This document shows positions 15,363 through 50,458 of a stretch of 64,000 nucleotides of DNA, in pieces; the first letter of the stretch is position 1, and every line of letters begins with the position of its first letter. Both the position numbers and the translations under genes were made by a program. The DNA comes from Candidatus Latescibacterota bacterium. GTDB lineage: Bacteria > Latescibacterota > UBA2968 > UBA8231. Location of the stretch: positions 1,216,001 through 1,280,000 of the forward strand of contig CBDCSU010000005.1 of assembly GCA_965221775.1 (NCBI GenBank), written 5' to 3'. The notes under the pieces were generated by a model. The model worked only from the letters and a program-made list of their open reading frames with translations. It did not search any database and was not told the DNA's origin.

Positions 15363-15373
15363 GAGAGGATCGC

Positions 15374-16447: not shown

Positions 16448-16650
16448 GGAACAGCACCTGACAAGCACGTGAAGCATCTCATCGCGTGGACGAGGGCCAG
16501 TCTGACCTCGACATCAGTTCCCCCAGCCGCAAGGAAACCTCTCCCTACTGGCCAACAGAAGCGTGATCTCAAGGCTCCCCTTTAGGGCTACTGATAGAGT
16601 TGCCGGTTTGACTATGGAACCCGACTTCAATGACAAATGAGGAGTCCAAA

Positions 16651-17316
16651 ATGAGAAGCAAGGATCGTAGATTACTGCTGATGATTGCCGTTCTGATGAC
16701 AGTAGGCTGCAAGATGCACATAGTACCGGAGCTGTATTTGACAGACCTACGAGACGTAGCCGTGAACAAGACGCAGAACGTGACGGTTCTAGCTACTCTG
16801 TCAATTGAAATCCCTTCATCGAGTGAGTGTGCAAAATACACCCGACAAGTCACTCAGAAGATAGGAGCGAACTTTGTGGGTTTTACCACTAAGGGATGTG
16901 AAGACCAAGGGATGGATTCGTACCTTCTCGCCAATGCCTCTCTGCCCCTAGTTCATTCTGTGGAAGAGTGGAATCGGGTGAAACACCGTTCGTTATTTGG
17001 GATTGTGTCCTATGCGGATGAGGATGGGGATAGAGTGGGCGTGCATATTATGTTGGATCTAGTGGCGTACGAAGACCTGAGTGATGACGTAAACATTGAA
17101 AAGTCCGAATTCGGATTCATAGTAATGAATGATGGTAGAGAGGCGGACGAATTCCATGTGTCTGGCTCATTCGTAAATGGCGTTGCAGTGCCATACACGA
17201 GGGAATTCTCAGTGGAACGTAGAGGAAGATTGGACGTAACAATCAGTAATGTGAAACTCTCTTACCTGGCCAAGAACGGAACCACAATGCTGATGGCGTT
17301 GCCAGGAATCCAGTAG
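16651..17316 (+). CDS. Low-GC hypothetical lipoprotein
   Basis: GAGGAG RBS, ATG 16651; basic N-terminus, hydrophobic stretch and lipobox-like TVGC; much more AT-rich than the flanks. Confidence 0.75.
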   Translation: MRSKDRRLLLMIAVLMTVGCKMHIVPELYLTDLRDVAVNKTQNVTVLATLSIEIPSSSECAKYTRQVTQKIGANFVGFTTKGCEDQGMDSYLLANASLPLVHSVEEWNRVKHRSLFGIVSYADEDGDRVGVHIMLDLVAYEDLSDDVNIEKSEFGFIVMNDGREADEFHVSGSFVNGVAVPYTREFSVERRGRLDVTISNVKLSYLAKNGTTMLMALPGIQ

Positions 17317-17410
17317 AGCAGCGAGGAGCCAGGATCCGCCGACTTCGGATCCCTGCTCACCCGGCCCCTCCACCCGCGACTCGGACAGGCCCGGCAAGAT
17401 CCGCTTCCCA

Positions 17411-19504: not shown

Positions 19505-19649
19505 GCAGGATGAGCAACCCACCCCTCCAGGCCGCCGTCGCCGCGGTGGACGCCGGCTACGCCGAGGCCCTGCGTCGGCGATGTGGTTCCTTCAGCAGGG
19601 GGAGGTTGCTCGTGTTCCCCGTTCGTGGTATGAAGAAGGAGGGGTGGGT

Positions 19650-19907
19650 ATGGCCAAGACCGAAATGATCCGTGCCCGGGTTGAACCGGAGCTGAAGTTC
19701 CAGGCCGAGGCGGTTTTCTCGGAGCTGGGGATGTCCGCAACGGAGGCGATCACCCTGTTCTATACACAGGTCACCCTGCATCGGGGGTTGCCCTTCGCGG
19801 TGCGGGTTCCCAATGCCGAGACCATCGAAGCGCTACGCCAGGCCCGTGCGGGCGAGGGGCTCACCGAGTACGCCGACGTGGAGGCCCTCAAAGCCGAGCA
19901 TGGTTGA
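19650..19907 (+). CDS. RelB/DinJ-family antitoxin
   Basis: IRARVEPELK..AE.VF..LGMS.TEAI.LFY.Q.....GLPF....PNAETIEAL; GGAGG RBS. Confidence 0.9.
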   Translation: MAKTEMIRARVEPELKFQAEAVFSELGMSATEAITLFYTQVTLHRGLPFAVRVPNAETIEALRQARAGEGLTEYADVEALKAEHG

Positions 19908-19910
19908 CCC

Positions 19911-20069
19911 GTGCGCCTCGATCCACGGCATCGGCCACATCGTCTATCGGGCGATTGGTCTGCCTGCTGGGAGTGCCACCTCGAACCCGCCTGGCTGTTG
20001 ATCTGGGACCAGAGGGATGACATCCTCGTCCTGGTGCGAACCGGAACACACGCCGATCTGTTCGGGTAG
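19911..20069 (+). pseudogene. YafQ-family toxin, N-terminally deleted remnant
   Basis: Translates as VRLDPRHRPHRLSGDWSACWECHLEPAWLLIW...LVRTGTHADLFG*, the C-terminal half of YafQ; only 52 aa. Confidence 0.8.
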
Positions 20070-22181
20070 TTGACCCAGCCGAAGCCAGTGGTCACCCCAC
20101 ATCTCCAGGCCGCCCTCGAAGCCGTCCAGGCCGGCGATCCCGAGGCCCTCCGCCCCCTGCTGGAGGCCCACCCCTCCCTCGTGAACACCCCTCTGCCGCA
20201 CGACGGCCGCACTCGAAGACCCCTGCCGACGCTGCTGCACCGGGCCGCCCTCGGCTGGCGCGAAGGCGAGCTGCAGGTGGCGCAGCTCCTCATCGATCAC
20301 GGCGCCGACGTCAACAGCACCGAGGGAGGGGCCCTGGCGCCGCTGGAGATGGCGGCCTGGTCGCGGCACCCGGGGATGGCCGAACTGCTGATCGCCAACG
20401 GCGCCGACGTGGAGCTGCATGTCGAGGTGCGGCCGGTGGAGGTGGCCGTCCTCTACCATAGACGGGACATCTTCAAGCTCCTCATCGCGGCGGGGGCGAA
20501 GTACGACATCTCCCATACCCTGCGCCTGGGGATGATGGCGGAGACGCGGGCCCTGCTCGCCGCCGACCCGGCCATCGCCAACATCGAGACCGACCACGGG
20601 CTGCCCCTGAACCTGGCGGTGGGCAAGCCGGGGATCTTCAAGCTGCTGCTGCGCCACGGGGCGGACATCCACGCCCAGGACTCCCTCGGCCTGACGCCGT
20701 TGAAGGCGGCGCGCACTCCAAAGAGCGACAAGGTGGTGCGGACCCTGCTGGAGATGGGTGTAGAGGACGACATCTACGGAGCCCTCGCGGCCGGCGACGA
20801 GGCCCGGGTCGAGGCGATCCTGAAGGCCGACCCGGCGCAGGCGCACCCGGTGGGCTGCTGGCCGCAGCGGGGACCTCTCCCGCCCGTGTTCTGGGCGATC
20901 TGGTCCGGATCGACGCGCATTCTGGAGCTGATCCTGGAGCAGGACGTGCCTCTCGACACCCGGCCGAACCCGCTCGACACGGCGATCTCCTACGGCTACG
21001 ACGAGATGGTGCGCATGCTGCTGGACAAGGGGGCCTCGCCCGAGTGCGCGGACTGCTCCGACTGGCCGGGGGCCTCCACCTACCCCCCGTACCGCCCCCT
21101 GTCACTACCGGGGCTGCCCCGGCCCCACGTGCCGCTCTACATGGCCCTGCGGGGCGGAACCATCGCCGCCGTGGAGATGCTGCTGGAAGCCGGCGCGGAC
21201 CCGAACTGCACCCTGACGGGTTGGGCCGGACTCCAGTGGCCGGCGCGGGGCGGCGATCTGCGGCGGGTGAAGCTCCTGCTCGACCGGGGCGGCGATCCGT
21301 CGAGCCCCTGCGCCGAGAGCGCGCTCCGCCTGGCGGTGCAGCTGTGCCGGCGGCCCATGGTCGAGCTGCTCGTCACCCACGGCGTCGACATCGACACCAT
21401 CGACGCGGACGGCCGGGGCCTGCTCGACATGGCGGGCAAGTCCGACGGGCGGCCGCGCCGTGAGGGACGGGTCAAGACGACCGCCTTGCTGGAGGAGCTG
21501 ATGGGGCTCGTCCACGGGTCCGCCCGGGAGACGCGCTCGCTGCGCCTCCGCCAGGACCTCATGGCTGCGGTCATCGAGGGGCGCACCGGCGACCTCCGCG
21601 CCGTGCAGGCGGAGGCACCCGAGCTCTTCGAGAGGGAGCTGGTGAGGGACGAGCTGTTCCACTGGGCCGCCAGCCGGGGTCACGGCCACGTGGTCGATCT
21701 GCTGGTGGAACTGGGCGCGCCCATGACGATCAGCGCCGCCGCGGCGCTCGGGCGGGTGGAGCTCCTCGATTCCATGTTGAAGGCGGACCCGTCCCTGGTG
21801 GAGGGGCGCCTGACCCCCGAACAGACCGACTGGAACAAGCACCTGCCCTGGCACGAACATTCGCCCCTCATCGTCGCCGCCATGAACGACCGGGCGGAGG
21901 TGGCGGCGCTGCTGCTGGACCGCGGCGCCGGGATCGACCGCCAGGTCGGCTGGTACCAGAACACGGCCCTGCACCACGCCGTGAGCAGCGAGTCCACCGA
22001 GACCGTCCGGCTCTTGCTGGAAAGGGGCGCGGACGTCACGATCCGCAGCCGCGATCACCACCTGCCCACGGCCCTGGTGAAGAACTGGCCGCCCACGGTC
22101 TCGCGCCGCGAGATCAGCGACCTGCTCGTCGACCACGGGGCCAACCCGCAGGAACTACCCACCCACGGGGCCAGCGAATGA
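20070..22181 (+). CDS. Large ankyrin-repeat protein (close paralog of 17411-19504)
   Basis: Collinear with the 697-aa protein and identical over long stretches; the start may be GTG 20088. Confidence 0.9.
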   Translation: MTQPKPVVTPHLQAALEAVQAGDPEALRPLLEAHPSLVNTPLPHDGRTRRPLPTLLHRAALGWREGELQVAQLLIDHGADVNSTEGGALAPLEMAAWSRHPGMAELLIANGADVELHVEVRPVEVAVLYHRRDIFKLLIAAGAKYDISHTLRLGMMAETRALLAADPAIANIETDHGLPLNLAVGKPGIFKLLLRHGADIHAQDSLGLTPLKAARTPKSDKVVRTLLEMGVEDDIYGALAAGDEARVEAILKADPAQAHPVGCWPQRGPLPPVFWAIWSGSTRILELILEQDVPLDTRPNPLDTAISYGYDEMVRMLLDKGASPECADCSDWPGASTYPPYRPLSLPGLPRPHVPLYMALRGGTIAAVEMLLEAGADPNCTLTGWAGLQWPARGGDLRRVKLLLDRGGDPSSPCAESALRLAVQLCRRPMVELLVTHGVDIDTIDADGRGLLDMAGKSDGRPRREGRVKTTALLEELMGLVHGSARETRSLRLRQDLMAAVIEGRTGDLRAVQAEAPELFERELVRDELFHWAASRGHGHVVDLLVELGAPMTISAAAALGRVELLDSMLKADPSLVEGRLTPEQTDWNKHLPWHEHSPLIVAAMNDRAEVAALLLDRGAGIDRQVGWYQNTALHHAVSSESTETVRLLLERGADVTIRSRDHHLPTALVKNWPPTVSRREISDLLVDHGANPQELPTHGASE

Positions 22182-24253: not shown

Positions 24254-24451
24254 TCAGGAGCAGCCCTGCCGGGCCTCCCGGCGCTCCCGCAGACGGCGGG
24301 CGTAGGGCGTCTCCACGCCGTAGCGGCGGCACAGCCGGCTGAAGCTGCGCGGGGCGATGCCGAGGGCCCGGCCGGCGGCCTCGTTGGTCGAGTACAGGCG
24401 GGCGGCGCGCTCGATGCGCTCCCGCTCGATGGGGCCGTCCCCCCGGTTCAT
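24254..24451 (-). CDS. Small Fis-like helix-turn-helix protein
   Basis: N.AAGRALGIAPRSFSRLCRRYG resembles a Fis/HTH_8 helix-turn-helix; ATGA overlap with the Rieske gene stop. Confidence 0.6.
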   Translation of the reverse strand: MNRGDGPIERERIERAARLYSTNEAAGRALGIAPRSFSRLCRRYGVETPYARRLRERREARQGCS

Positions 24452-26273: not shown

Positions 26274-26744
26274 ATGGCCGAGCTTTCGGAGTCCCTGACC
26301 ATCGGCGAGGTGGCGGCCCGAAGCGGGGTCGCCGCCTCGGCCCTGCGCTTCTACGAGGAGGAGGGACTGATCTCCTCGGAGCGGACAGGCGGCAACCAGC
26401 GGCGCTATCCACGGGCGGTGCTGCGCCGCGTCGCCGTCATCCGCGCCGCCCAGAAGATCGGCGTGTCCCTGCGGGAGATCCGCTCGGCCCTGGACGGGCT
26501 GCCCAGCGGACGCACACCCAACAAGGCGGAGTGGGCGAGGCTCTCCCGGGGCTGGAGGGATCAGCTCGAGGAGCGGATCGAGACGCTGGAGAGGTTGAAG
26601 GAGAGCCTGACCGGCTGCATAGGCTGCGGCTGCCTGTCCCTGCGGACGTGCAAGCTCTTCAACCGCGAGGACGAGATAGCATCCCGCGTCGACGGCAGCC
26701 TGCTGATGGGGCAACCCGCGCCGAGACGCCCGTCCTCCGGGTGA
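26274..26744 (+). CDS. soxR: Redox-sensitive transcriptional activator SoxR
   Basis: LTIGEVAARSGVAASALRFYE, GNQRRY, CIGCGCLSLRTC [2Fe-2S] motif. Confidence 0.95.
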   Translation: MAELSESLTIGEVAARSGVAASALRFYEEEGLISSERTGGNQRRYPRAVLRRVAVIRAAQKIGVSLREIRSALDGLPSGRTPNKAEWARLSRGWRDQLEERIETLERLKESLTGCIGCGCLSLRTCKLFNREDEIASRVDGSLLMGQPAPRRPSSG

Positions 26745-26765
26745 CGGCGCCGCAAGCCGGATCGT

Positions 26766-28700: not shown

Positions 28701-28877
28701 GCGAGTAGAGGTCAGGCGAGCGCACCCTCCGCGGCCGGACGGAAACCGGTCAGGGTCGGCTCGACACTATAGCCACGGAGATGCTGCTATACAAGGCGGG
28801 GAGCCTCGGCGATTCCTAAGACCGCATGGACTCCTCCGTTGTGGCTACACCTTCAGGGGAAACCCGCGGCATGACGG

Positions 28878-29133
28878 GCTTCAGTGAGGCCGGGGCACCT
28901 TCCGCCCCGGAAACTGGACGCTACCCTCGCGCCACGGCTGATGGGCTGCTTGTGCTTCAATGAGGCCGGGGCTACTTCGCCCGGAAACTGCCGATTCCGG
29001 TTCTTCATACGACGGTTCGAGGAGCTTCAATGAGGCCGGGGAACCTTCACCCCGGAGACCCGGTGGTTCCGGCCTTCAGGAGCCGGGTACCATCCGTGCT
29101 TCAGTGAGGCCGGGGAACCTTCGCCCCGAAGGT
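28878..29133 (-). CRISPR. Degenerate type I-G (I-U) CRISPR mini-array, 4 repeats and 3 spacers
   Basis: Repeats at 28878-28914, 28954-28988, 29024-29059 and 29098-29133 (GCTTCARTGAGGCCGGGG...CCCGGAAAC-like, 35-37 bp); spacers of 39, 35 and 38 bp. The minus-strand repeat ends CCTCA(T/C)TGAAGC, as I-G repeats do. Confidence 0.9.
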
Positions 29134-29137
29134 GGAG

Positions 29138-30064
29138 CTATGGCTGCCATGACACCTCCGGGGGCCCGAAGGTGCCATAGCCGCCTTGTCCGGACCGGCG
29201 GATGGGGGACCGGAGGATCCTGAAGATCCCCCAGGAACGGAACCAGCGGCCGCGGTCGGAGGCGGCCGGGTCATAGCCATGCGCCAACAGCGACTTGACC
29301 GCATGGGGCGACGCCGGTATGTGCCAGAGCGGCCAGGAGTAGGCCCCTGCCTTCCACGAACCGGAGCATCCCTGAGTGAGCGTTCGTTTCGGGCTTCCGA
29401 ATACGGGATGCCGGCTCAATCCCAGGATAGCCAGGGCTTCGGGGCCCGGGTTCGTGAGCTTCGGGTCGGGTCCTGACTTCAGCGCGGGATTGCAGGCTCT
29501 CAGAGCATACACCCGGTCATCAACGATGTCCCAGCCCAGAGAAGGGAGCTTGCTCGCATACTCCCATGGACCCTGGAGACCGGAGAGCAAGTCCCCACGT
29601 GAGACTCCGCTGAGGATTCGGCGAGCCGTGGCGAGGAACTTCTGCTGCCCCGCCGAGAAATAGAGGTCCGACGGCTTGGCGACGCCTTGATTGTCCAGAC
29701 TTCCTTCGGCTACCAGGGCGGCAATCAGACCGCCGGTCAAGACGCACCGGTCGGCCGAGGAGAGATACGTCCGCAGATCGTCAGGGGTGAGCTTCAGTTC
29801 ATCCCCTTTGGGCATGGCCGCGCCGTTCCGTAGCCTGGGGTTGGTTGCGTGGCTGTCCCTCCACAGGACAAGGGCCTTCATGCACTGATCCGCCAGGCGC
29901 TCAAGGCTGAACTCTCCATCCACGACTGCATGGGGAACGACGCCATCCTTCCACCAGAGCCGAGGCTTCTCACGCTCAGTGGCAAATGCAAGTTGAACGC
30001 CGACGGCGGCGAGAAAGCCCAAGGGGTTTGTTCCTTCGAGACCCGTGAGGTCGGTCTGGTTCAT
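29138..30064 (-). CDS. cas8g2: Type I-G CRISPR-associated Cas8g2 (Cas8u2-like) large subunit
   Basis: GLEGTNPLGFLAAVG, SAGQQKFL, GPWEY, DRVYAL...P, WPLW; position directly after cas3. Confidence 0.75.
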   Translation of the reverse strand: MNQTDLTGLEGTNPLGFLAAVGVQLAFATEREKPRLWWKDGVVPHAVVDGEFSLERLADQCMKALVLWRDSHATNPRLRNGAAMPKGDELKLTPDDLRTYLSSADRCVLTGGLIAALVAEGSLDNQGVAKPSDLYFSAGQQKFLATARRILSGVSRGDLLSGLQGPWEYASKLPSLGWDIVDDRVYALRACNPALKSGPDPKLTNPGPEALAILGLSRHPVFGSPKRTLTQGCSGSWKAGAYSWPLWHIPASPHAVKSLLAHGYDPAASDRGRWFRSWGIFRILRSPIRRSGQGGYGTFGPPEVSWQP

Positions 30065-32786
30065 GGTGCTCGGCCTCCTCGCCGGTCTGTTGATGATCGG
30101 CCAGCCGCAGGATCGCCTCGAACCAGGCCAGGCCGTGGTATCCGTACCGTTCGACCAGGCGCCAGAAACGGTCGGCCATGTCGAGAGCCAGGGTGCTTTC
30201 CACGAGATCGGAGTTGGCCTCCAGGAGGTGTCCGGCCAAGGTACAGGTGAGTCTCCGAGGCTCCGGATCCTCAACTATGGGCAACAACGGACGCCCCCAT
30301 CCGTGGTGAGTTCCGACCAAGTAGAGAACCAGGTCTTTATCGTGGGCACCCTCCAGGATGCCCGGGTTCGACGCTGCCATGGCGACGCTGGCCACTTCAT
30401 GTCGCATTCCCGTCGGACAGTGGCCCCCTCTTGCAACCCTCCGCAGAGATTTGGCAAGGGGCTCCCTCTGCATTTCCAATTCCACTGGATCACCCCCCAC
30501 CAACTCGGCCTGGAAGCGCCTGTCCACCTTCCCGAGGTCGTGTAGAAGGCCGGCCAGGCGCAGATCCCCCCGCAGTTCGGAGGGAAAGCCCAGAGACTCG
30601 GCGATGTGGCCTGCCCGCTCCCTTACACCATCGAGATGCCGGCTCAGCGTCACACCCGTACCGATCAGGGAGCCCGACTGGTCCGAGCCGTCCATGGCAG
30701 CAGTGTCCACTATCGGGCCTTTGGTCCCGCCATGCCGCTCTGTCAAGACGTAATAGCCATGGTCTGAACCGTGTTCCCCGAGCCCTACCGAGTCTATTTC
30801 AAAGCCGTCGCCCAACCTCTCCAGGGTCTCGCGCTCCCAGTCGAGTCGTTGGCCAGAGTCGGCGCTCCATCGATGCAGCCAGTCTCCGACTCGTTCCTCA
30901 TTGGATGAACCCTCTGCAGGATCGACGGAAGGCAACGGCGGGGACACGATGCCGGGCAGTCGCGGATCGAGGCGCAAGGTTGCTCTTCGGCTGCAGGCGA
31001 CTTGCGCCACATCTCCAAGGTCGGCCACATGCTCTCTCGAAGAGGGATCCCAGTTCGCGGCTCTCAGGCCGCCTCGACGGGGATCCACGATGAGAATGTC
31101 CCCTGGATCAACCGCATCAGCCGGAATGCACTCCGGACCGCTGTCGAATCCCATCCAGCGCACCCATTCGGTCTCTCGGTCGGCACCTCGATCACCATCC
31201 GCGGTGTCCACCTCGCCGCAGCTGGAAAGCCAGGACTTGGCGGCATCGATGGAAACTGGCAGGAACTCCGACGGCCGCGGCGGGACCAGCCGAAGTGCCT
31301 CCTCGGATCTGTCCCATCGCCAGACGATGGAGACATCCGGAGCACACCTCCTCCCCAGACCGCGCAGGAACCAATCAACGGAAGGCTGCACGATCGGCTG
31401 CGGGCTGGTCTGGGTCCAGGCGTCCATGTGCGTCTTCAGCAGCCGGGGAGCTCGAGCCCTTGGAGCAAGAGCCTCGCTTGGGAAGTCCTGGAGAGAGGCT
31501 GGCCCCACATCGATCGGACCATCCTTGCTTCTGCGTTCGAGTTCGGCCCAGGTCGCCTTGACGGAGGAAACCACCGGCCTGCAGCCCACGATCCAGGCTC
31601 GAGCGGACCTTCCCGTCCGCGAGGAGTACCTGCCACGCCGGTCGAGGCGGCCGAGTCGCTGTCGCAGGCTGTCTATGGGAGCACACTCGGTGATGAGGGC
31701 GTCGAAGGTGAAGTCGGCCCCGACCTCGATGGCTTGCGTGGAAACGACGATGGTCAGTCCCTCCCCTCGCCCTGCACCATCCGGATCAAGGGCGGAACCG
31801 ATTCTTGCCACGGTGTCCAAGCGGTCCAATGGCCGCATGCGTCCGGTGACCAGAAAGGTGGTATAGCCTCTATCTCGGAGCGTTCGATGGACTTCCCGGG
31901 CCATTCGCACCCGGTTCACCACGACCCCGACGGTTCGGATGTCCTGGCGAGATTCCAGCTTGCCCACTGACTTGACGATCTTGAGAACGGCACCCGGCAT
32001 GAGGTCGTGACTCGCCAGCGGCACCAGCTCCGCCTCCTTGGCCGCCTGCACCCGGCGGCGCAGTTCAGCACACCTCTCCAAGTCGGCGACAGGATCAAGC
32101 CTGAAGGGTTCAGCGTCGCTGTCGGTGGGGGTCGCCGACATCTCAACCAGGCCGTAGCGTTCAGGCGGCCCCCAGCACCGCAAGGCTCCTACCTGCGCCA
32201 GTGTCTCTGCGAAGGGAAGGCCTGGATGGAGTTCGTCAAGGATCACCAGACAGTCGTTGCCTGCAAGGCCCGCGTGAATCGGCCACATTGTCGGCTTCAC
32301 GCCCTGGCCACGGAAGAGCAAGCGGGAGCCGAACTGATCCACGGTGGAGACAGCCACCCATGGTTGATCCGGGCGGTGACTCCACTCGTCCACGGGAACG
32401 CCGCCCCGCAAGGCGGCGCATCCCAACGGTTCTCCCGGGCTCAAGGTTTCAAGCCGTTGTCTCACTCTTCGCAGGATCGGCGTGTCGCCTGCCTCTATGC
32501 GGTCGAGGATCCGTAGCGCCCGCTTGCATGCCTGATGGACGACGACGCGTCTGTCCACGACGAAGACGATTCGCCGTGGCGCATCTGCGGGCCTGAGGGC
32601 AAGGGCAAAGACGGCCACATCGAGCACGGCGGTCTTCCCGGAGCCGGTGGGCAGGTCGATCACCTTCGGCCACTCTCCGCTCTCGAGGACCTGACTCGCC
32701 AGACGTTGCTGCCAGGGGAAGGGACTCTGACCGTGCACGTCCTGGAAGAAGAACGGAAAGTGGCCGGGCAGGAGGTCTTCACTCAT
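29976..32786 (-). CDS. cas3: Type I-G Cas3 helicase with C-terminal HD nuclease
   Basis: PFPWQ, LPTGSGKT, DELH, MSATP, TQAIEVGAD, QRLGRLDRRG; C-terminal H...LHDLGK...RHE...HHG...LAD; ATGA overlap with csb2. Confidence 0.93.
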   Translation of the reverse strand: MSEDLLPGHFPFFFQDVHGQSPFPWQQRLASQVLESGEWPKVIDLPTGSGKTAVLDVAVFALALRPADAPRRIVFVVDRRVVVHQACKRALRILDRIEAGDTPILRRVRQRLETLSPGEPLGCAALRGGVPVDEWSHRPDQPWVAVSTVDQFGSRLLFRGQGVKPTMWPIHAGLAGNDCLVILDELHPGLPFAETLAQVGALRCWGPPERYGLVEMSATPTDSDAEPFRLDPVADLERCAELRRRVQAAKEAELVPLASHDLMPGAVLKIVKSVGKLESRQDIRTVGVVVNRVRMAREVHRTLRDRGYTTFLVTGRMRPLDRLDTVARIGSALDPDGAGRGEGLTIVVSTQAIEVGADFTFDALITECAPIDSLRQRLGRLDRRGRYSSRTGRSARAWIVGCRPVVSSVKATWAELERRSKDGPIDVGPASLQDFPSEALAPRARAPRLLKTHMDAWTQTSPQPIVQPSVDWFLRGLGRRCAPDVSIVWRWDRSEEALRLVPPRPSEFLPVSIDAAKSWLSSCGEVDTADGDRGADRETEWVRWMGFDSGPECIPADAVDPGDILIVDPRRGGLRAANWDPSSREHVADLGDVAQVACSRRATLRLDPRLPGIVSPPLPSVDPAEGSSNEERVGDWLHRWSADSGQRLDWERETLERLGDGFEIDSVGLGEHGSDHGYYVLTERHGGTKGPIVDTAAMDGSDQSGSLIGTGVTLSRHLDGVRERAGHIAESLGFPSELRGDLRLAGLLHDLGKVDRRFQAELVGGDPVELEMQREPLAKSLRRVARGGHCPTGMRHEVASVAMAASNPGILEGAHDKDLVLYLVGTHHGWGRPLLPIVEDPEPRRLTCTLAGHLLEANSDLVESTLALDMADRFWRLVERYGYHGLAWFEAILRLADHQQTGEEAEHHEPDRPHGSRRNKPLGLSRRRRRSTCICH

Positions 32787-34318
32787 CGAGACTCCGGCAC
32801 TGGGCGCATCAGTCCCAGCCCCATGAATCGACCGGCCCCGAGCATCAGTGGCCCCTCTACGGGGTGCTTGAATGTCACCGCTGCGTGAACGAGCTGGCGT
32901 CTGACCAGTGTGCCCTCCCGCCCTCTCTGGCTGAATGGCGGATAGCGCCCGGCCGGCGTGGACCCCGCGATGAACGGGCTCAGCGCAATCTCCACTGCCG
33001 AGGGTTCCGGCAATCCGACGTGCACGCAGGCGGCTGCGACGGCCCCCTCGGCCAGTCTCCAGGCCTCGGCTCGCGCACCGACCCTCCCCGCCCTCAGGCT
33101 GCCAGGATGTCTTGGCAGCGCAATGGGCGTCGCCGACACCCACCGCCGGGAAGGACGATGCCAGGCACTTGGCCGCAGGTCGGCCGCGTCGGGAGGCCCG
33201 CGGTGGCGGTCCATGCGGAGTACGCCCTGAGATCCCAGAGTGAGCCTGAGGGGATAGGGCTGCTGGGGAGCCCCCTGCTCCCACCTGCGGACCGCCCGGA
33301 AAAGGGCCCGGCGCGTGTCGTCTCCCAGGGATCTCGGCACGGACAGGGCGATACCGAGCAGACGCGCGTCCCCGCGCTCAGAGCCGATGTTCGGCAGAGG
33401 AAGGAACGCCACATGGGGGTCGCAGGTCGGCTTGCCATCCGGCCTGTGGCCGCTCAGCTCTTCGGGAATCGGATCCTCGGCGTGCTTGAGAGTGGCTCTT
33501 CGCATGGCCGCCGCAGAATCCACTGCTCGTGTAGCTGGAAGGAAGCGGCAGTTCTGCGCGAATGCGAAGACGATCCATTCGCCAAGAGTGTTGGGCTGCA
33601 AGGTTGGCTCATCCTGCACGGTCTCCGCTGTGGAACTGTATCGAACGTCCGTGTATGGCAGGGCTCGGGGCCTGACGCCCTGGTGTCGGAGATACTGCCG
33701 TTGGAGCGCTCCAAGTTGGCCCCGCCTTACAGCGCGCAGGCCATCTGTACCGCGGCCTGGCGTGTAACTGGCGCGAATAGACTCCCGCACCACACGGCAG
33801 GAAACGAGGGAAGAGGAGTGGCCCAGCCGGGCAACTCGGCTGAGAAGGTGGTCCATGGTCTCGCCCATGCCTCCTGGAGCAGCCTCTTCCCAGAGATATG
33901 TAGCCCGGGGCCGGCGGGGAGTCACGGACGGGAAGAACCGCTCCTGGGGGAGAAAGTTCCTGTCCTGTTTGTCCCTGCTGTCTCTTGGCTCAGTCCGATG
34001 GTCCGGGAGTATGCGCATCGATGAAGAGGGGTTCGAGTCGATGATGCGAACATCGTTCACCGGAACGAAATGCGAGACTACCCTGCGCGGCGCGGCTTCC
34101 GACGCGGCGATGGCGGGTGCTCCCTGGGCCTCGAGCCATTCCAGGGCATCGCGTTCCTCGGGATCGCGACCATCCTCGGCCCAGACCGCCACGAGTGCAG
34201 AGAACACACGCGCCGGGTGCGGTGGCCACTCCCCCCGCCGGCGGTCGTTGTGGAACGTGGCCACGTACCGCTCCGTCAGGAAGTTCACTTCGATGCCGAA
34301 ATTCGCCAAGCGAGACAT
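32783..34318 (-). CDS. csb2: Type I-G Csb2 (Cas5/Cas6 fusion)
   Basis: EWPPHPARVFSALVA, WVSATP, C-terminal Gly-rich loop GPLMLGAGRFMGLGLMRP. Confidence 0.92.
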   Translation of the reverse strand: MSRLANFGIEVNFLTERYVATFHNDRRRGEWPPHPARVFSALVAVWAEDGRDPEERDALEWLEAQGAPAIAASEAAPRRVVSHFVPVNDVRIIDSNPSSSMRILPDHRTEPRDSRDKQDRNFLPQERFFPSVTPRRPRATYLWEEAAPGGMGETMDHLLSRVARLGHSSSLVSCRVVRESIRASYTPGRGTDGLRAVRRGQLGALQRQYLRHQGVRPRALPYTDVRYSSTAETVQDEPTLQPNTLGEWIVFAFAQNCRFLPATRAVDSAAAMRRATLKHAEDPIPEELSGHRPDGKPTCDPHVAFLPLPNIGSERGDARLLGIALSVPRSLGDDTRRALFRAVRRWEQGAPQQPYPLRLTLGSQGVLRMDRHRGPPDAADLRPSAWHRPSRRWVSATPIALPRHPGSLRAGRVGARAEAWRLAEGAVAAACVHVGLPEPSAVEIALSPFIAGSTPAGRYPPFSQRGREGTLVRRQLVHAAVTFKHPVEGPLMLGAGRFMGLGLMRPVPESR

Positions 34319-34323
34319 GCTGC

Positions 34324-35577
34324 CTACTCAGGGGAATGTTCGGTGGCCGACAACTTTCTGCTGCGGAGAATCAGTTCGATCAGCTTTGGTGCTGGTGTCA
34401 GGCGAAGGCCACCGGTTTCCCAACCGATTCCGACCGCTTCCGCGCGCTCGGCAGCAGAAGACAGGACTTCGGCAGCCATGCTCTTGTCCAACTGGACGAC
34501 CTCGCTGGCAGAGCCGTCGCGGGAGAGCATGCTGGCCCGTAGCGGGTGGGTTGGAAGGAGGAGACATCGTGACCGCAGGTCGAAGTCCTTCTCGTACTGA
34601 TAGGCAATGGCAGCGACGCCCAATGCTGCAACCGCGGTGCGGGCCGCTGTCTCTGCTTCGCTGTCGAACCCCTTGAACCTCAGGCGGCGAAGTGCCGCGA
34701 AAGAGATAACGGTGGTCTGCCGGGCCTTCGAGATCGTGACGCCGCCAGCCTCGGCGTCTATGGAAGGAACGATGTTCCCGTGGTTGATCTTTGACGGCTG
34801 ACCAGCCTCCCCGCTCATGCTGCCCCGCGAAGCGTATACAGGGTTCCCCTTCTTGTCCTTCTCCGCTGCCTCCGGGTCGTGAGTCCAGACCTCGGCCGGA
34901 TCCTCGCTGTTGAGCACGCGATCCTCCGGCGCAACCCTTTCGATCTGGAGTGGGTCTATGCGGCTTCCCACCTTCTTCCCCACAGCGGCGTCGAAACCGA
35001 CGATTTCCGATACATAGGCGCGTTGGAAACGCGGGCCGAGTCCGCCTTTCGGGCCCGTCGAATCCCACATACCGAACAACAGGGAGGTCGGCGAGTACCG
35101 GAACAGATCGGTAGCATTGCGCGGGGTTGCGTCGGTAATCGCTTGTCCCACATCCGACAGTCGAAACAGCGTTCCGCCGAACAGGCTGTCCCGGAAAATC
35201 GCATCTGCCAGGCGATGCGGCGCTTCGAGGACGGTGACCTTGTCATAGTCCGTTGCGTTCCCGGTCCCAGAGAAGTCCACGTACGGGACCGGGAAGGAGA
35301 GTTCCTCTCGCTCCCACCCCTCCAACAGGGCCAGCTCCGCCCTGTTGGCTTGTGACGCCACGGAGTCCAGCAGGACCGTAATGCTCGTCCTCTCCCCTTG
35401 TCCAACTTGACGCTCCTCAATGGCGTACCGGTGCTCGAGGCGTCCCTCCACCCTGTAAGATGGGGGGAAGACCTTGTCTCCCTCGCCACCAGCAGGCTGC
35501 AATGTCATGCGGGACCGCAAGGCCACCGCGCCGCCGGCGACAGCATCAAACAGGCGATCGAATGTGAGTCGCGACAC
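34324..35577 (-). CDS. csb1: Type I-G Cas7 backbone (Csb1)
   Basis: LQPAGG.GDKVFPPSY, LLDSVASQANRAE, APHRLADAI, PTSLLFGMWDS, SRIDPL, DLRSRC; AGGAGG RBS before GTG 35577. Confidence 0.93.
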   Translation of the reverse strand: MSRLTFDRLFDAVAGGAVALRSRMTLQPAGGEGDKVFPPSYRVEGRLEHRYAIEERQVGQGERTSITVLLDSVASQANRAELALLEGWEREELSFPVPYVDFSGTGNATDYDKVTVLEAPHRLADAIFRDSLFGGTLFRLSDVGQAITDATPRNATDLFRYSPTSLLFGMWDSTGPKGGLGPRFQRAYVSEIVGFDAAVGKKVGSRIDPLQIERVAPEDRVLNSEDPAEVWTHDPEAAEKDKKGNPVYASRGSMSGEAGQPSKINHGNIVPSIDAEAGGVTISKARQTTVISFAALRRLRFKGFDSEAETAARTAVAALGVAAIAYQYEKDFDLRSRCLLLPTHPLRASMLSRDGSASEVVQLDKSMAAEVLSSAAERAEAVGIGWETGGLRLTPAPKLIELILRSRKLSATEHSPE

Positions 35578-35609
35578 CCTCAGCCTCCTGAAAAAGGCTG
35601 TGTGCGGCT

Positions 35610-36110
35610 TCAGGGAGGGCAGGCGCTGGGCGCGCGCCTCCGGGCGCAGGTGTGTGTACTCGCCACTGGAGTGCCCAGCTCCGCCTTTTCCTCGGGTGCA
35701 ATGCTGGCCCGAGCTTTGGCCAGTTGCCGCTTGATGCGTCCCTTCCGGCCTGCCTCCAGGGACCTCGTGCGCTTTTCCGCGCAGACGAGGCATCGCCGGG
35801 CCGCCGGTCCCCTGTGCTCGATAGAGACCCCGCAATCCGCACACTCCCGGCGGCGTCGGCCGAGGGCCAGGGCTCGGATCGTCTCGCGCACGAGACTACG
35901 GACGCGCACCGGCGAGATTCCGTGCCTTGCGGCGATGGCGTCGACTCGGAGCTCCTCCCCCTTGAGGCCGTAGTACTCCGAGAGGATCTGCCGCGCGCGC
36001 TCCGGCAGACCCGCGATCAGATCGAGCGCCCAGGAGCGGATCTCGGCATCGGGTACTCCCTCGTGAAACTGGCTCCACAGGAGTATGCGCAGGGAACGGT
36101 GATGGTTCAC
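35610..36110 (-). CDS. Sigma70 region-4-like HTH protein with CxxC...CxxC zinc finger
   Basis: LPERARQILSEYYGL.GEEL...AIAARHGISPVRVRSL...IRAL (region-4 pattern), then CADCG...RRCLVC and a basic tail; AAGGAGG RBS; first gene of the cas operon. Confidence 0.75.
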   Translation of the reverse strand: MNHHRSLRILLWSQFHEGVPDAEIRSWALDLIAGLPERARQILSEYYGLKGEELRVDAIAARHGISPVRVRSLVRETIRALALGRRRRECADCGVSIEHRGPAARRCLVCAEKRTRSLEAGRKGRIKRQLAKARASIAPEEKAELGTPVASTHTCARRRAPSACPP

Positions 36111-36302
36111 TTCACTTCGCCTCCTTCTGTTTCGTGGCAGAGCCTTCAGCCTCGAGAGAATTCCCCTATCAGCTGGCCGAGACTGCGTGCTTCGATTCCA
36201 GGCGCGTGGGATGGTATGGAAGGCCTGCCTCGAAGAGTGATTGATAACACGCTTATACCTTCAGAGCTGTCCACAACGATCCTGGTCCCTGAGTTTGAAG
36301 TC

Positions 36303-36388
36303 GGGACAGCAACCCCTCATGCCCGAGTAGCCCACCCGATTCGGGAGGCCGCCCTGTCGGGCAGGAGCCCGGGAGGGGTTGCTGTCCC
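36303..36388. ncRNA. Candidate structured RNA element, copy 1
   Basis: 16-bp perfect inverted repeat GGGACAGCAACCCCTC/GAGGGGTTGCTGTCCC enclosing two short hairpins. Confidence 0.5.
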
Positions 36389-36617
36389 TTCGAGACGCAC
36401 ACACACAGACACATAACTCACGCAAAGTGGACACTTTCAAGGTTTTTCATTTATTGATAACACGCTTATACCATTCATGCTGGCACCTGGCCAGTCAGGA
36501 GACCAGAAGGGCTCGATGCTCGACTCTGCAAACTGTACATAGGGCCGATTGTGAACCATTGCAAGAGCAGGACCCACGAGCGTGATCCCCTTGTATCGAT
36601 CCTCCTTTGAACGAATC

Positions 36618-36708
36618 GGGATAGCAGCCCCTCACTCCTACAGGAACCTCCCGGAGGAGGGACCGAGAGACCCTACTGGGTTTTGAGCCCGTGAGGGGTT
36701 GCTATCCC
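36618..36708. ncRNA. Candidate structured RNA element, copy 2
   Basis: 18-bp inverted repeat GGGATAGCAGCCCCTCAC/GTGAGGGGTTGCTATCCC (one G-U pair on the + strand); compensatory changes relative to copy 1. Confidence 0.5.
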
Positions 36709-37024
36709 TCTCATCGCTACGATAGCAATTGCTGTGGGAGGTATGCAACTAACAATTACCCAGAGAGCGGCCATTGATTGCAGGTGGGCTTCGGAGAGTG
36801 TTTGATAACACAATTGGTGAATTGCTACCTGTGGGTTCATCTTTTGGGGTGTGAGCGTGTGCTCAAGGACTTTTCCGCCTGGGCCTTGCGCGCTCGGCGT
36901 ACTGAGACCGGGCGACCCGGACCGCTGCCGAGATGGCATCCCGAGTCGGCGGAATCTCTCTGATGGGGAAAAACCTGCGAGAGACGCCCATCCACCGGGG
37001 ATGGCGAGGGGCGCCGGCCGGCCC

Positions 37025-38983
37025 TCAGCCCGGGCGGTACTCCAGCACCACCCGGTTCTCCGGCCCCCGCAGGCCCATGGTGTTCACCGCCCGCGCCCGC
37101 AGGCGGTTGCGCCCCGGGCGCAGCTCCCACTCGAAGACGGGACCGCTCGCCTCCCACTTCCCCCGGTCCAGGCTGACCTCGAAGCGGTCCAGGTGGGGGA
37201 TGGGGCCGGAGAGCCGCACCGTCAGCGCCGCCGCCGTCTCCGTGTCCTGCAGGTCGATCCGCGTGCGGTTCAGGTCCCAGTAGAAGTCCTCGGGCCGGTT
37301 GGTCTGCAGCGAGTACTCGGGATACCTCGGGTCGAGGCTGTCCGTCCACCACAAGTGGCCGTCCCAGTGGTACTGGTCCATCCCCTGCTCCAGCTCCTGC
37401 GGCTCGGGGCGGTAGAGGTGGTCGTTGCGCAACGGCATGCCGAAGCGCTGGTAGAGCTGAGCGAACATCGTCCGGAGCCGCTCGTCGGGGACGGGCGGCG
37501 GCGGCACGAACTCCAGGTCCTCCATCCGGCCGGCGGCGCCGAGGCGGTGCATCTCCAAGGCGTTGATCGGCACGCCGGCCTCCTCGTACTGGAAGGCGAC
37601 CTCGTGGCCGGGCAGGAGGCCCGGGTCCTGGAGGATCCACTTGCCGTGCTCGTCGGACCAGATCTCCGCCAGGCAGTGGTGGTCGACGATCACGGGCCGG
37701 GCGTGGTAGCCGAGGGAGCCGGCGCACTGGCTGAAGACGGCGGCGTAGTGGGTGCACATGCCCAGGGCCAGGTTCTGCGGCGCCAGCTCCAGGATCTCGA
37801 GGGCGTCCCACTGGGGGCAGTAGTTGTACTCGTTGTCGTTCCACCCCTCCCACTGCCGGCGGACCCACTGGCGCAGCAGGGCGAACCTCTCCATCTCGGT
37901 CTGCCCGGGGGCCACGACCTCCTCCAGGCGGTACTTCTCGCGCAGGTGGCGCATGCGCGGGTGGTGCGGGTCGGCGTAGTCGAAGGGGTAGGAGGAGACG
38001 GCCAGGTCGTTCTCCGGCGCCGAGATCACCTCGATCCGGCGGCGGTTCGCCCCGACGGCGCGCCCGGAGGCCTCGATGGTGACGCTCTTCAACAGCGGCG
38101 TGACGGCGGGATCGCCGCTGGAGAGGGTTGCCCGCCATTGCAAGAACCGCGCCCCGGGCAAGGGCTCCCCCGAATCGGCGGCGCGCCAGGAGGTCCACTC
38201 GTCCGAAGCGTACAACGCCGTCGAGCCGGATCTCACCTCGAAGCGCACCGAGGTCCTCGGCGGCATTTCGGTAGCGGCCGACAGGCGCAGGGCCTTCAGG
38301 TCAAGGCCGGGAGCGACCGCCTCCTCCGCGGCCAGGTCGATGACAGGAGAGGTGGCCACACCCTCCCGCGGATGGCCGCGGACCCTCAGGCGGACGACGT
38401 ATTCCCCCGAGAGGTCGTTGTCCGCTCCGAGCATGTCCCCCTTCCACTCGCCGCGGCCCTCGAGGCGCTTGAAGCTGTTGCGGCCGGGCTCGTCGGCGTC
38501 GATGACCAGCGACCCGGCGCCGGAGAAGACCAGCTCGTTGCGGCCCGGGCGCAGCCAGCGGCCGGGGATCGTCTCACGGTCCCAGCCGCCGGTGAGCATC
38601 CTCTCGAGGTCCTGCACGTGGCGGATCTCGTGCCCGTTGACCGAGATGAGCAGGGGCTCCTCCTCGGTGCCGCCGCCCCCGTGGAACAGGACCTCCGCCG
38701 ACTCCACCGCCGCCGGCAGGTCGAAGAGCTTCTTCGCCTCCACGGCGGGCGTCAGGCTCTCACGGATCTTGGAGCTGCGCGCCATGGCGTCGGCGATCAG
38801 CCACGTCGGCGCCAGGCAGAGCCCGCCCTCGTCGGCGCAGTAGCCGGTGAAGCGGTCGCGGGTGCAGCCGGCGAGGGCTTCGCCTTCGAGGGTGGTCTTC
38901 CACTCGGTCATGGGTGGTGCGGCGGAGGTGGTGCCGGCGGACACCAGCAGCGCGGCCAGGGCGAGGCGGGCGAGGCGGGGCAC
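37025..38983 (-). CDS. Secreted transglutaminase-like domain protein
   Basis: Signal peptide after GGAGG + GTG 38983; GMCTHYA, HCLAEIWS and WILQDP give a Cys-His-Asp triad pattern. Confidence 0.75.
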   Translation of the reverse strand: MPRLARLALAALLVSAGTTSAAPPMTEWKTTLEGEALAGCTRDRFTGYCADEGGLCLAPTWLIADAMARSSKIRESLTPAVEAKKLFDLPAAVESAEVLFHGGGGTEEEPLLISVNGHEIRHVQDLERMLTGGWDRETIPGRWLRPGRNELVFSGAGSLVIDADEPGRNSFKRLEGRGEWKGDMLGADNDLSGEYVVRLRVRGHPREGVATSPVIDLAAEEAVAPGLDLKALRLSAATEMPPRTSVRFEVRSGSTALYASDEWTSWRAADSGEPLPGARFLQWRATLSSGDPAVTPLLKSVTIEASGRAVGANRRRIEVISAPENDLAVSSYPFDYADPHHPRMRHLREKYRLEEVVAPGQTEMERFALLRQWVRRQWEGWNDNEYNYCPQWDALEILELAPQNLALGMCTHYAAVFSQCAGSLGYHARPVIVDHHCLAEIWSDEHGKWILQDPGLLPGHEVAFQYEEAGVPINALEMHRLGAAGRMEDLEFVPPPPVPDERLRTMFAQLYQRFGMPLRNDHLYRPEPQELEQGMDQYHWDGHLWWTDSLDPRYPEYSLQTNRPEDFYWDLNRTRIDLQDTETAAALTVRLSGPIPHLDRFEVSLDRGKWEASGPVFEWELRPGRNRLRARAVNTMGLRGPENRVVLEYRPG

Positions 38984-39080
38984 CCGCGGGCCTCCTTCGC
39001 TATCGAGATACTCGCGCCGCCGAGAATCGCGCATGAGGGCTCGCCGTTTCATGTGTCGCGTTGTGCCGCTGCCATCCGGG

Positions 39081-48733: not shown

Positions 48734-50458
48734 CTATGTTGACGAGCCAAGCAGGTTACGCAGCTTGGCGAGAATTCGGTCTCGTCGTGCCTCATAGAAC
48801 ACAATGAAGCCAGGGATATCCTCCGGGATCTCCTCAAGGTTTCCAAGATCATGAAGGGATACATACTCTATCGCTTTTGCCTTGGAATCAAAGGCACTAC
48901 TGATCCACTCCGTGGGCATCTTATCGCGCTTGCTCTGATTCTCGTTTCCAGCGAGAAGTTGCAGGTTTGGCAGGCGGTTCGCACAGTCCTGGAAGGTTTC
49001 GATGTCATCTTCGGCTACGCCCGCCCGCCTCAGTTTGCTGGGCGAGAACCGGCTCTTCGGAAATACGTGGTCGATATGGAAGTGGTTGTTTCGGAGATCC
49101 ACGAACGGGTACAACAAGGAAAGCAGCCCGAACGTGCGGTCTCCAGACTCAGCGAGGTCTTGGAGCTCTTCATCGACAAATGTCAGGATCTTGCCCTGGT
49201 CACGCATTGCTTCTTCCATACGGGCAACCGGGAACGCTTCACTGCCGTGCTCATCGATTACGCTCCGAAGCCGAGTGAGGAGCGTATCCAGACCCGCGCC
49301 CCAGATACCACGCTTAAGCAGGGATCGTATCAGCCAGCTTCGGATGGCCTCTCGGTCCTCTCGGTGTAGATCCCCGGACATCTTTCGCTGGTATACGTAG
49401 TGAGCGATGGGCAGAACCGCGTTGTCTGCCGTAAGGCTCTGCCGAGAAAAGCCGAAGTCTACGATCAGTCCCACAGCTGTGACGATCGCGTGCGTGATAT
49501 GATCCCATCTCTCTTCCAGACGTTGCATGTTGCGAGTGTTGAAGTTGGTTACCCTGAATCCGACACTCTGTATGCCAGCGAGCATTAGGCCTGCCTTCAG
49601 CACGAAGTCCCTGGAAAAGTTGAAGCCATCTCCGAGCCGGTTGATTTGGTCCACTGTACTGTGGATTGCCTCTCGGGCATCCCGTGTCCACTGGGCGATG
49701 GAGATGCTCATAAGTATGTCCGAATTGCTCAGGGGCGTACCGCCGCTGTTCGTGCGGACGAAGATGTCCAATACCTTGCCGACATCTTGTCCCTCTTCCT
49801 CATAGTAAGCGATGACTGGATTGGTGTGCACCATGCGATGAAGCCCATCGAGGACATCTAAGGCTTGGCTTTCGTCGCCCAGGTTCCTCTCGATCAAGAA
49901 TCGATGGAGATCGATGCCTCTGGCACTAAGTATGTCGCGGACACGATACCAATGGTGTGTTTTGTCGTTGTCCTTCGCCTCGTCCTCTGTGAGGAATTGG
50001 AAATCGTACTTCAATCCGTCTTCGTTCTCCTCCGCATCGGCAAGGATATTCAAATACAGATGTCTCTCGGGATAAGCATGGTCACTCTTTGCCGAGTAGT
50101 ATGGGAGTTTGTAGGCATAGCTCCCTCGCAAACCTATGTTCAGAGCGGTCAACCGCTGTTGGCCGTCCAATACCGCGACGATCTGTTCACGTGTGATCCG
50201 GCCTGTTCTCTGCAAACGCCGGTTGTCCTTCTCGTGATAGTGGAGCATGAAATCGTAGAACCTGTACTTCATGATGTCACGTTGGACCTTCCAGAATAGG
50301 AAGGACCCTATTGGATATCCGCGCATCAGGCTGTCAAAGAGCCTCTCAATCTGGTCAGTGGACCAGACCACCTCGCGCTGAATGTCGGGCAGCACGTACT
50401 TGCGCTCTTCGATAGAGCGCAGGGCCGTCATGATCGTGATAGGAATATGAAACGCCAT
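48734..50458 (-). CDS. DUF262 + DUF1524 (GmrSD-family) modification-dependent nuclease
   Basis: LPDIQRE.VW, GYPIGSFLFW, LDGQQRLT, IF.R.NSGG..L; C-terminal HIDHVFP...NLQLL...N..K (HNH-like). Confidence 0.88.
   Translation of the reverse strand: MAFHIPITIMTALRSIEERKYVLPDIQREVVWSTDQIERLFDSLMRGYPIGSFLFWKVQRDIMKYRFYDFMLHYHEKDNRRLQRTGRITREQIVAVLDGQQRLTALNIGLRGSYAYKLPYYSAKSDHAYPERHLYLNILADAEENEDGLKYDFQFLTEDEAKDNDKTHHWYRVRDILSARGIDLHRFLIERNLGDESQALDVLDGLHRMVHTNPVIAYYEEEGQDVGKVLDIFVRTNSGGTPLSNSDILMSISIAQWTRDAREAIHSTVDQINRLGDGFNFSRDFVLKAGLMLAGIQSVGFRVTNFNTRNMQRLEERWDHITHAIVTAVGLIVDFGFSRQSLTADNAVLPIAHYVYQRKMSGDLHREDREAIRSWLIRSLLKRGIWGAGLDTLLTRLRSVIDEHGSEAFPVARMEEAMRDQGKILTFVDEELQDLAESGDRTFGLLSLLYPFVDLRNNHFHIDHVFPKSRFSPSKLRRAGVAEDDIETFQDCANRLPNLQLLAGNENQSKRDKMPTEWISSAFDSKAKAIEYVSLHDLGNLEEIPEDIPGFIVFYEARRDRILAKLRNLLGSST

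Follow-up and report, generated by a model that had tools for sequence, protein, structure and literature searches.

Regulatory small RNAs (sRNAs) can occur as tandem duplicates in which each copy carries its own operator for a common regulator, as in PrrF1/PrrF2 with their Fur boxes and in the Qrr sRNAs. Y RNAs and comparable scaffold RNAs follow another plan, in which a conserved closing stem encloses a variable interior. Among the clustered regularly interspaced short palindromic repeat (CRISPR) systems of type I-G, one preprint describes cleavage by Csb2 at 4 nt after the hairpin, an 8-nt handle on the CRISPR RNA (crRNA) and a TTN protospacer adjacent motif (PAM) (10.1101/2022.08.08.503147). 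The CreR RNAs are degenerate mini-CRISPRs in which the first pseudo-repeat keeps the handle nucleotides, the second keeps the 3' handle, and the spacer-like part has a partial match in a PAM-flanked site at the cas promoter; the CreR preprint gives these features and mentions manually found I-U examples (10.1101/2023.03.10.532045). The present analysis concerns a 64,000-nt stretch of DNA (the window) from a sponge-associated Candidatus Latescibacterota bacterium (contig CBDCSU010000005.1, positions 1,216,001 to 1,280,000), whose genome measures 5.36 Mb and is 96.8% complete. Two structured elements, E1 and E2, lie in the spacer upstream of a type I-G-like cas operon in this window. They are real, apparently under selection and specific to the locus, and constitute an orphan pair of candidate regulatory elements. 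The interpretation favoured here, tentatively and at something short of even confidence, is that they form a duplicated cassette of structured regulatory RNAs placed under the same control as the cas genes.

Repeat search and folding agree on two elements with closing stems of 16-18 bp at the positions given by the original prediction (Table 1), 193-598 nt upstream of the first open reading frame (ORF) of the minus-strand operon. More specifically, the E1 arms (36303-36318 and 36373-36388) are 16 nt long, 100% complementary and 54 nt apart; the E2 arms (36618-36635 and 36691-36708) are 18 nt long, 94% complementary and 55 nt apart; and the repeat search matches the arms of E1 to those of E2. 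Both elements fold more stably than every one of 200 dinucleotide shuffles on either strand, with energies of -59.0 kcal/mol (z -4.9) on the plus and -62.0 kcal/mol (z -5.7) on the minus strand for E1, and of -57.5 kcal/mol (z -6.3) and -57.9 kcal/mol (z -5.2), respectively, for E2. Perfect 14-bp inverted repeats with loops of 20-100 nt number only 20 in the whole genome, E1 being one of them. Such rarity of long inverted repeats, together with the sequence common to the two copies, places E1 and E2 beyond chance.

The distribution of conservation between the two copies is revealing. In their alignment, the 5' arm is identical at 15 of 17 positions and a 3' block at 22 of 24, while the interior is identical at 16 of 50 (32%, chance level). 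This pattern corresponds to the constant scaffold and variable interior that had been proposed for the pair. Within the conserved 3' block are the motif GAGCCCG and the 3' arm, preceded by the end of a small hairpin. Direct reading finds GAGCCCG, the small hairpins (GCCC-TGTC-GGGC in E1, ACCC-TACT-GGGT in E2) and the 5' flank motifs as the original prediction described them, with CGATCCT at 36277 and 36597 and TTTGAA at 36294 and 36606. The spacers that precede the two elements, and likewise those that follow them, do not clearly exceed shuffled sequence in their similarity (z ~2 and ~0.6), and the box-to-element spacer as a whole is only ~2 standard deviations (sd) above shuffles between E1 and E2. 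No reading frame is common to E1 and E2 on either strand; by direct reading, the small ORFs that cross them have no conserved frame. A cassette that has become randomised except in defined blocks points to function, and this patterned conservation between unalike surrounding spacers suggests an old segmental duplication followed by selection on specific blocks.

The pair appears to be confined to this locus. Nowhere in the window did a covariance model of Rfam 15 reach its gathering threshold, and in the spacer a cut-off of E 10 let through only ar14 (12.7 bits against a threshold of 58.8, E 8.9), which agrees with the earlier description of an unannotated element; ARAGORN found no tRNA or tmRNA. 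With their long, constant closing helix, variable inner module and tandem arrangement, E1 and E2 resemble Y RNAs; this likeness is architectural only, and they differ in giving no Y RNA match in Rfam even at E 10. A covariance model built from E1 and E2 had no hits at E<=1 in the best 80 of 259 csb1-encoding loci; with filters off, all of its hits in 10 of these 80 loci had E>1, and its sole other hit in the rest of the window (16608-16679) had E 0.51. A DNA search of 60 related genomes returned a single 36-nt match (in G020, E 0.0075), which is near the cut-off and was taken as chance. Across 168 genomes of the phylum the arm pattern gave scattered single hits at close to the control level and occurred as a pair in no genome but that of the window. 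Two exact patterns each found nothing in metagenome contigs and nothing in viral contigs, and blastn against plasmids and phages gave no match. When the spacer was compared by blastn with the 80 csb1 loci, homology began only at the csb1 start codon, with none upstream. Within the 5.36-Mb genome the arms occur at this locus only, in two copies, and of the non-coding RNA family originally proposed there remain two copies at one locus, further homologues having been found nowhere among the sequences searched.

In their 16-18 bp inverted terminal arms, which enclose a short interior for a total of ~90 bp, E1 and E2 recall repetitive extragenic palindromes or miniature inverted-repeat transposable elements (REP/MITE). 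They differ in being two adjacent copies with a common external flank and box. A REP/MITE identity, which the original prediction had named among the findings that would refute it, was rejected: two copies are present in the genome, paired copies are absent from the other 167 genomes of the phylum, and the inverted arms are bordered by GAAGTC / TTCGAG and GAATC / TCTCAT, with no target-site duplication. The common box, flank motifs and element show that E1 and E2 arose by segmental (cassette) duplication and not by transposition.

The same observations bear on the alternative that E1 and E2 act as DNA, either as an inverted repeat (possibly a cruciform) bound by a protein such as the regulator encoded next to them, or as relics of the terminal inverted repeats of a lost mobile element, with a role in recombination or repression now or in the past. 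Conservation of the arms in sequence and not just in pairing (15/17 for the 5' arm and 15/16, as counted in the alignment) would be expected of protein binding sites, and E1 and E2 occupy the last ~800 nt of an insertion, beside a gene for a protein of DNA-binding type. However, no transposase or integrase is present among the island ORFs scanned, and the lack of a target-site duplication and of further copies in this genome or the phylum, as well as the signature of segmental duplication, do not fit a mobile element. In addition, two independent half-sites would have no need of a double change that restores complementarity. This alternative is considered quite unlikely.

That double change is found in the closing stem. 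Of its 16 pairs compared between E1 and E2, 14 are invariant, one has changed from C-G to U-A and one from A-U to G-U on the plus strand. This restored complementarity fits a folded nucleic acid, whether RNA or extruded DNA. Pairing kept through a double change, in sequences that fold 5-6 sd beyond shuffles, supports a structured RNA. The compensatory swaps on which the original prediction relied are indeed seen in both stem and small hairpin, but as covariation evidence they carry no statistical weight, since a score as high as the observed one is reached by 251 of 500 shuffles. The folds leave the inner structure ambiguous: at minimum energy E1 forms a rod without the tetraloop hairpin, E2 folds as a junction, and RNAalifold selects a different inner helix that likewise shows "compensatory" changes. 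The stems themselves are real. As to the strand, the single non-Watson-Crick position of the E2 stem is G-U (G-T in the DNA) on the plus strand and A-C on the minus strand, and the motifs common to the two copies outside the stem lie 5' of it on the plus strand, as would be expected of a single-stranded leader preceding a terminal structure. The G-U pair and the placement of the conserved flank lean weakly toward an RNA read from the plus strand.

A third component of the spacer is a set of short boxes. The spacer (36111-37024, 914 nt) has a G+C content of 52-60% over most of its length, compared with 70% for the window. Three boxes with the core TTGATAACAC interleave with E1 and E2; this core occurs three times in the window, always in this spacer, against 0.47 occurrences expected. 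Boxes 1 and 3 have in common a stretch of 35 nt with 77% identity, and box 1 lies 127-150 nt upstream of the start of the regulator ORF. The genome contains no further copy of the box 14-mer. It has 12 sites with the heptamer ATAACAC, of which 3 fall in this spacer; in a search for a guide to the box, none of the 12 proved to follow a handle. The first ORF of the operon encodes an orphan protein with a sigma-70 region 4 and a weak C4 zinc-ribbon signal. A search of this protein against 5.8 billion proteins matched only its own cluster, tblastn against the 80 csb1 loci found no counterpart, and 75 genomes of the family gave only two weak sigma-like matches. A box unique to the spacer and an orphan protein of DNA-binding type make a plausible cognate pair.

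Taken together, these features may be accommodated by a single scheme. E1 and E2 would be diverged copies from an old tandem duplication of a cassette made up of box, short flank and element, which would have taken place within the regulatory end of a cas island gained by horizontal transfer. Each element would be transcribed as a small RNA, most likely from the plus strand and divergently from the cas operon. The closing helix, small hairpin and GAGCCCG would form a scaffold recognised by a protein, leaving the 5' interior free to vary. The three boxes would serve as operators for the sigma-region-4/zinc-ribbon protein of the island, bringing the cas operon and both RNAs under common control, and the RNAs may affect cas expression. 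The arrangement resembles that of the PrrF and Qrr sRNAs, in that E1 and E2 are tandem paralogues, each adjoining one copy of a common short box, with conserved blocks in an otherwise diverged cassette. It differs in that no promoter or terminator was detected for E1 or E2 and in that the link between regulator and box is a presumed one. An RNA-library contig spanning 36433-36638, which runs from box 2 to within the 5' arm of E2, is counted in favour of this scheme.

Several observations weigh against it. Conservation of the arms in sequence besides pairing would also fit protein binding to DNA, and on the plus strand box 3 is not followed by a third element. A consensus scan of 35900-37150 on both strands found no sigma-70-type promoter, and a terminator scan of the same interval found no sites on either strand; the latter was limited to loops of 3-8 nt, and E1 and E2 fall outside this limit. 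The result of the covariation test given above was obtained with n=2 sequences, and no homologue outside the organism's own species was found in the searches made, so that there is no usable covariation. The minus-strand fold of E1 is 3 kcal/mol better than the plus-strand fold. The RNA-library contigs have a depth below 4 (2.5 for 36433-36638) and no strand information, and DNA carry-over is possible. The contig 36433-36638 also begins upstream of box 2, unlike a plus-strand start just after the box. A further RNA-library contig (X14) covers 35721-36158, that is, the regulator gene and 48 nt upstream of it. The RNA-library contigs do not cover E1 or most of E2, which is no evidence of silence.

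The question of strand leads to the alternative that E1 and E2 function as hairpins in minus-strand transcripts that run toward the cas operon, originating from read-through of the host operon that received the island or from boxes 3 and 2, and acting as terminators/insulators or as leader structures by which cas expression would be shielded or tuned. The host genes that flank the island are ~13-20 nt apart in two genomes of the same genus (G002 and G004), so read-through would enter here. Read in this direction, box 3 is followed by E2, box 2 by E1 and box 1 by the regulator-cas operon, and E1 is slightly more stable on this strand. On the other hand, there is no U-tract after either hairpin (by direct reading, neither arm is followed by a T-run), the terminator scan was empty, the E2 stem mismatch becomes A-C, and a plain hairpin role would leave the conservation of the arm sequence, GAGCCCG and the flank unexplained. 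Minus-strand hairpins of this kind are regarded as unlikely.

Sequence variation among strains provides a further comparison. The window stretch is present in public runs from 9 studies, 12 runs containing at least half of the sampled words, 5 of them labelled sponge metagenome; two DNA-type runs (X6 and X12) and two RNA-library runs (including X14) were used for the strain and RNA comparison. The X6 strain has 7 differences in the spacer, none of them inside an element or box. The X12 strain has a 1-nt deletion within the E1 interior at 36340 and no change in arms or boxes. The absence of changes in the arms and boxes is a weak test of constraint (P ~0.1 by estimate), the variants being too few. 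These data are relevant to the possibility that E1 and E2 are relics without present function, a palindrome having been duplicated with its box and the copies being similar by chance or through gene conversion. The occurrence of only two copies in one species, the lack of detected transcription signals in 35900-37150 and the deletion in the X12 copy of E1 are all compatible with relics. However, ~90% identity of arms and 3' block against 32% in the interior, between spacers that cannot be aligned, is hard to obtain neutrally, and the unchanged arms and boxes in X6 and X12 add slightly to this difficulty. An origin as functionless relics is accordingly rated as rather unlikely.

Comparison with related loci gives the regulatory interpretation of E1 and E2 a precedent. 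Csb1 relatives of 62-83% identity (L013-L092) are encoded in metagenome-assembled genomes (MAGs) titled to many bacterial phyla and in one Nitrosopumilaceae archaeon. Many of these MAGs are sponge-associated, several from sponge-associated candidate families, and from one locus to another the sequences upstream of csb1 show no relationship. The cas cassette appears to spread horizontally. CreR-like units are found in L016 (~3600-3700), L043, L051, L053 and L054, on the strand opposite csb1 and 310-368 nt upstream of it, each with the handle CCTCATTGAAG(C), followed after ~41 nt by a repeat-type hairpin. The first 18 nt of their spacer-like parts match a site at a distance of a few tens of nt in 15, 14, 15, 11 and 15 of 18 positions, and these sites are flanked by TTA, TTT, TTT, TTG and TTA, respectively. 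Spacer-like part and target site change together from locus to locus; the five loci are homologous in this region and are not independent cases. A related two-repeat unit is present in L014 (3400-3560) and L017 (1180-1340). This arrangement points to crRNA-guided autoregulation in the related cas loci. Because the equivalent position in related loci (divergent, 120-550 nt upstream of csb1) holds CreR-type RNA genes, a regulatory RNA at the position of E1 and E2 is not without precedent. A 9-mer likeness between the box and the CreR target of L016 is confined to that one locus and was set aside as chance.

In one of the loci compared (L069, from an Acidimicrobiia MAG), an 81-nt long-stem element lies at 3531-3611, 390-470 nt upstream of csb1. 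A ~22-nt box is found once inside this element and again just after it, before a TTGACA-type promoter-like site and a 67-aa ORF.

E1 and E2 might themselves be crRNA-like RNAs of the CreR/CreA type, in which a degenerate handle (TTTGAAGT / TTTGAACG) would be followed by a spacer-like stretch and a small hairpin, and which Csb2/Cas7g would load. The original prediction had suggested guide-like or CreTA/CreR-like RNAs. Their location upstream of the first ORF, in the spacer of a cas locus, and their divergent orientation are those of the CreR-like units of related loci. Both copies have the handle-like octamer with a small hairpin ~36 nt later, and the 16-18 nt after the octamer are complementary to a nearby site, which recalls partial spacer-target matches. 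However, the octamers match the handle that a first CreR pseudo-repeat would keep here (AYTGAAGC) at only 5-6 of 8 positions and lie on the strand opposite the array. A profile of the array repeats, which recovers 4 of 4 repeats in the array, finds nothing in 36111-37024 at E up to 100 with filters off, and the reading of TTTGAA(G/C) as a crRNA handle was accordingly abandoned. The crRNA handle that had been given for comparison, ATTGAAGC, is the right one for this array but stands on the minus strand. The small hairpins, of 3-4 bp, are unlike the CCGGGG...CCCCGG hairpin of the repeats. The would-be spacer matches nothing but the opposite arm of the same element, where the flank reads GAA or AGA, compared with TTN in the five loci and in published type I-G systems. 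The array spacers give only chance-level matches to the spacer region and the genome, with no TTN-flanked seed match in the control region. Moreover, the best-conserved block (3' arm and GAGCCCG) would fall outside such an RNA, and the ~90-nt structures with long closing stems have no parallel in crRNA-like RNAs. With no repeat-derived handle, 3' hairpin or PAM-flanked target detected, membership in CreR/CreA was rejected, and a crRNA-like nature of E1 and E2 is judged highly improbable. A cas-linked RNA without precedent, in which a constant protein-binding scaffold (closing helix and 3' junction block) with a variable module would replace, in this type I-G derivative devoid of Cas8 and adaptation genes, the regulatory or guiding role of a CreR-like RNA and act with the orphan regulator or with Csb2/Cas7g, is also considered very improbable.

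The genomic setting of the pair, summarised in Table 1, is an island of ~8.1-8.3 kb. Besides E1, E2 and the boxes it carries the cas genes, the regulator gene and the array, and it has a G+C content of 62-66%, compared with ~70% outside. The gene to its right (37025-39052, transglutaminase-like) has orthologues of 88-96% identity in four genomes of the same genus. In two of these, G002 and G004, it is joined almost directly to the sequence that ends here at position 28711, upstream of a DUF6785 gene, so that the two genes lie ~13-20 nt apart, and the whole cas locus stands between them in the present genome. The other two, G006 and G007, keep the equivalent of 28712-28855 together with a ~210-nt element like 36929-37006, with other sequence in between. 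The absence of the island from the equivalent site in all four genomes indicates an insertion of ~8 kb, and on this comparison the cas island is horizontally acquired. A standard type I-G system comprises Csb1/Cas7g, Csb2, Cas3g, Cas8g/Csx17 and, for adaptation, Cas4-Cas1 and Cas2. Here Csb1, Csb2, Cas3g and the Cas3-extension protein are present; no ORF scanned matched Cas8g, and the Cas1 family was not found in the 96.8%-complete genome, which suggests a reduced derivative and not a standard type I-G locus. The true start of cas3g is probably further downstream than the listed ORF start.

Table 1. Coordinates of the island, its genes and the elements of its control region within the window
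Feature	Position	Strand	Description
Inserted island	~28861..36928		28712-37015 when measured against G002/G004
Mini-CRISPR	28878..29131	-	4 degenerate repeats, 3 spacers; repeats end in CCTCAYTGAAGC
Type I-G "Cas3-extension family" gene	29138..30064	-	Family match
cas3g	29976..33284	-	ORF as listed; family match from residue 176
csb2 (Cas5-Cas6 fusion)	32783..34318	-	Family match
csb1/cas7g	34324..35574	-	Start placed at the onset of homology with related loci
Regulator ORF, first of operon	35610..36110	-	166 aa; sigma-70 region 4 and weak C4 zinc-ribbon signal; orphan
Box 1	36237..36259		GTGATTGATAACAC plus a 20-mer identical to box 2; 43 nt from E1
E1 flank	36277..36302	+	CGATCCT ... TTTGAA ... 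TC, motifs common to E2 flank; 5' of E1 on plus strand
E1	36303..36388		86 nt; perfect 16-bp closing arms; variable 5' interior; conserved 3' block
Box 2	36450..36472		20-mer 36453-36472 identical to box 1; between E1 and E2
E2 flank	36597..36617	+	Motifs common to E1 flank
E2	36618..36708		91 nt; 18-bp closing arms; 3' block the same as in E1
Box 3	36777..36811		GTGTTTGATAACAC; upstream stretch 77% identical to that of box 1

Several further features of the island's surroundings were recorded. The stretches 26546-26757 and 36929-37006 form an element pair, 77% identical over 80 nt, whose right copy is truncated at the island junction; full ~210-nt versions of the 36929-37006 element occupy the same site in G006 and G007, and G007 carries a different insert of ~930 nt there (L107 566-1500). 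A GmrSD-type restriction gene (48734-50458) is found ~12 kb away from the island, to the left of which lie three large ankyrin-repeat genes (14366-22181); together these genes fit a host-associated lifestyle. On another contig of the genome, a second long-stem pair of 105 and 81 nt (-71.5 and -56.9 kcal/mol; G000 C6:2383906-2384010 and 2384272-2384352, equivalent to L115 2907-3011 and 3273-3353) flanks a small helix-turn-helix (HTH) gene. This gene has 6 genomic copies, one of them at window position 24306-24416; it is kept in relatives, and the hairpins are not.

The present value of E1 and E2 is modest and lies in a well-defined orphan pair whose whole control region spans less than 1 kb. 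The related loci with CreR-like units, in which spacer-like parts co-vary with their targets, form a useful comparison set for it. If E1 and E2 are regulatory RNAs, as tentatively favoured here, they would show that regulatory modules unlike crRNAs can connect a horizontally spreading, minimal type I-G cassette to new hosts, and would extend the known means of cas control.

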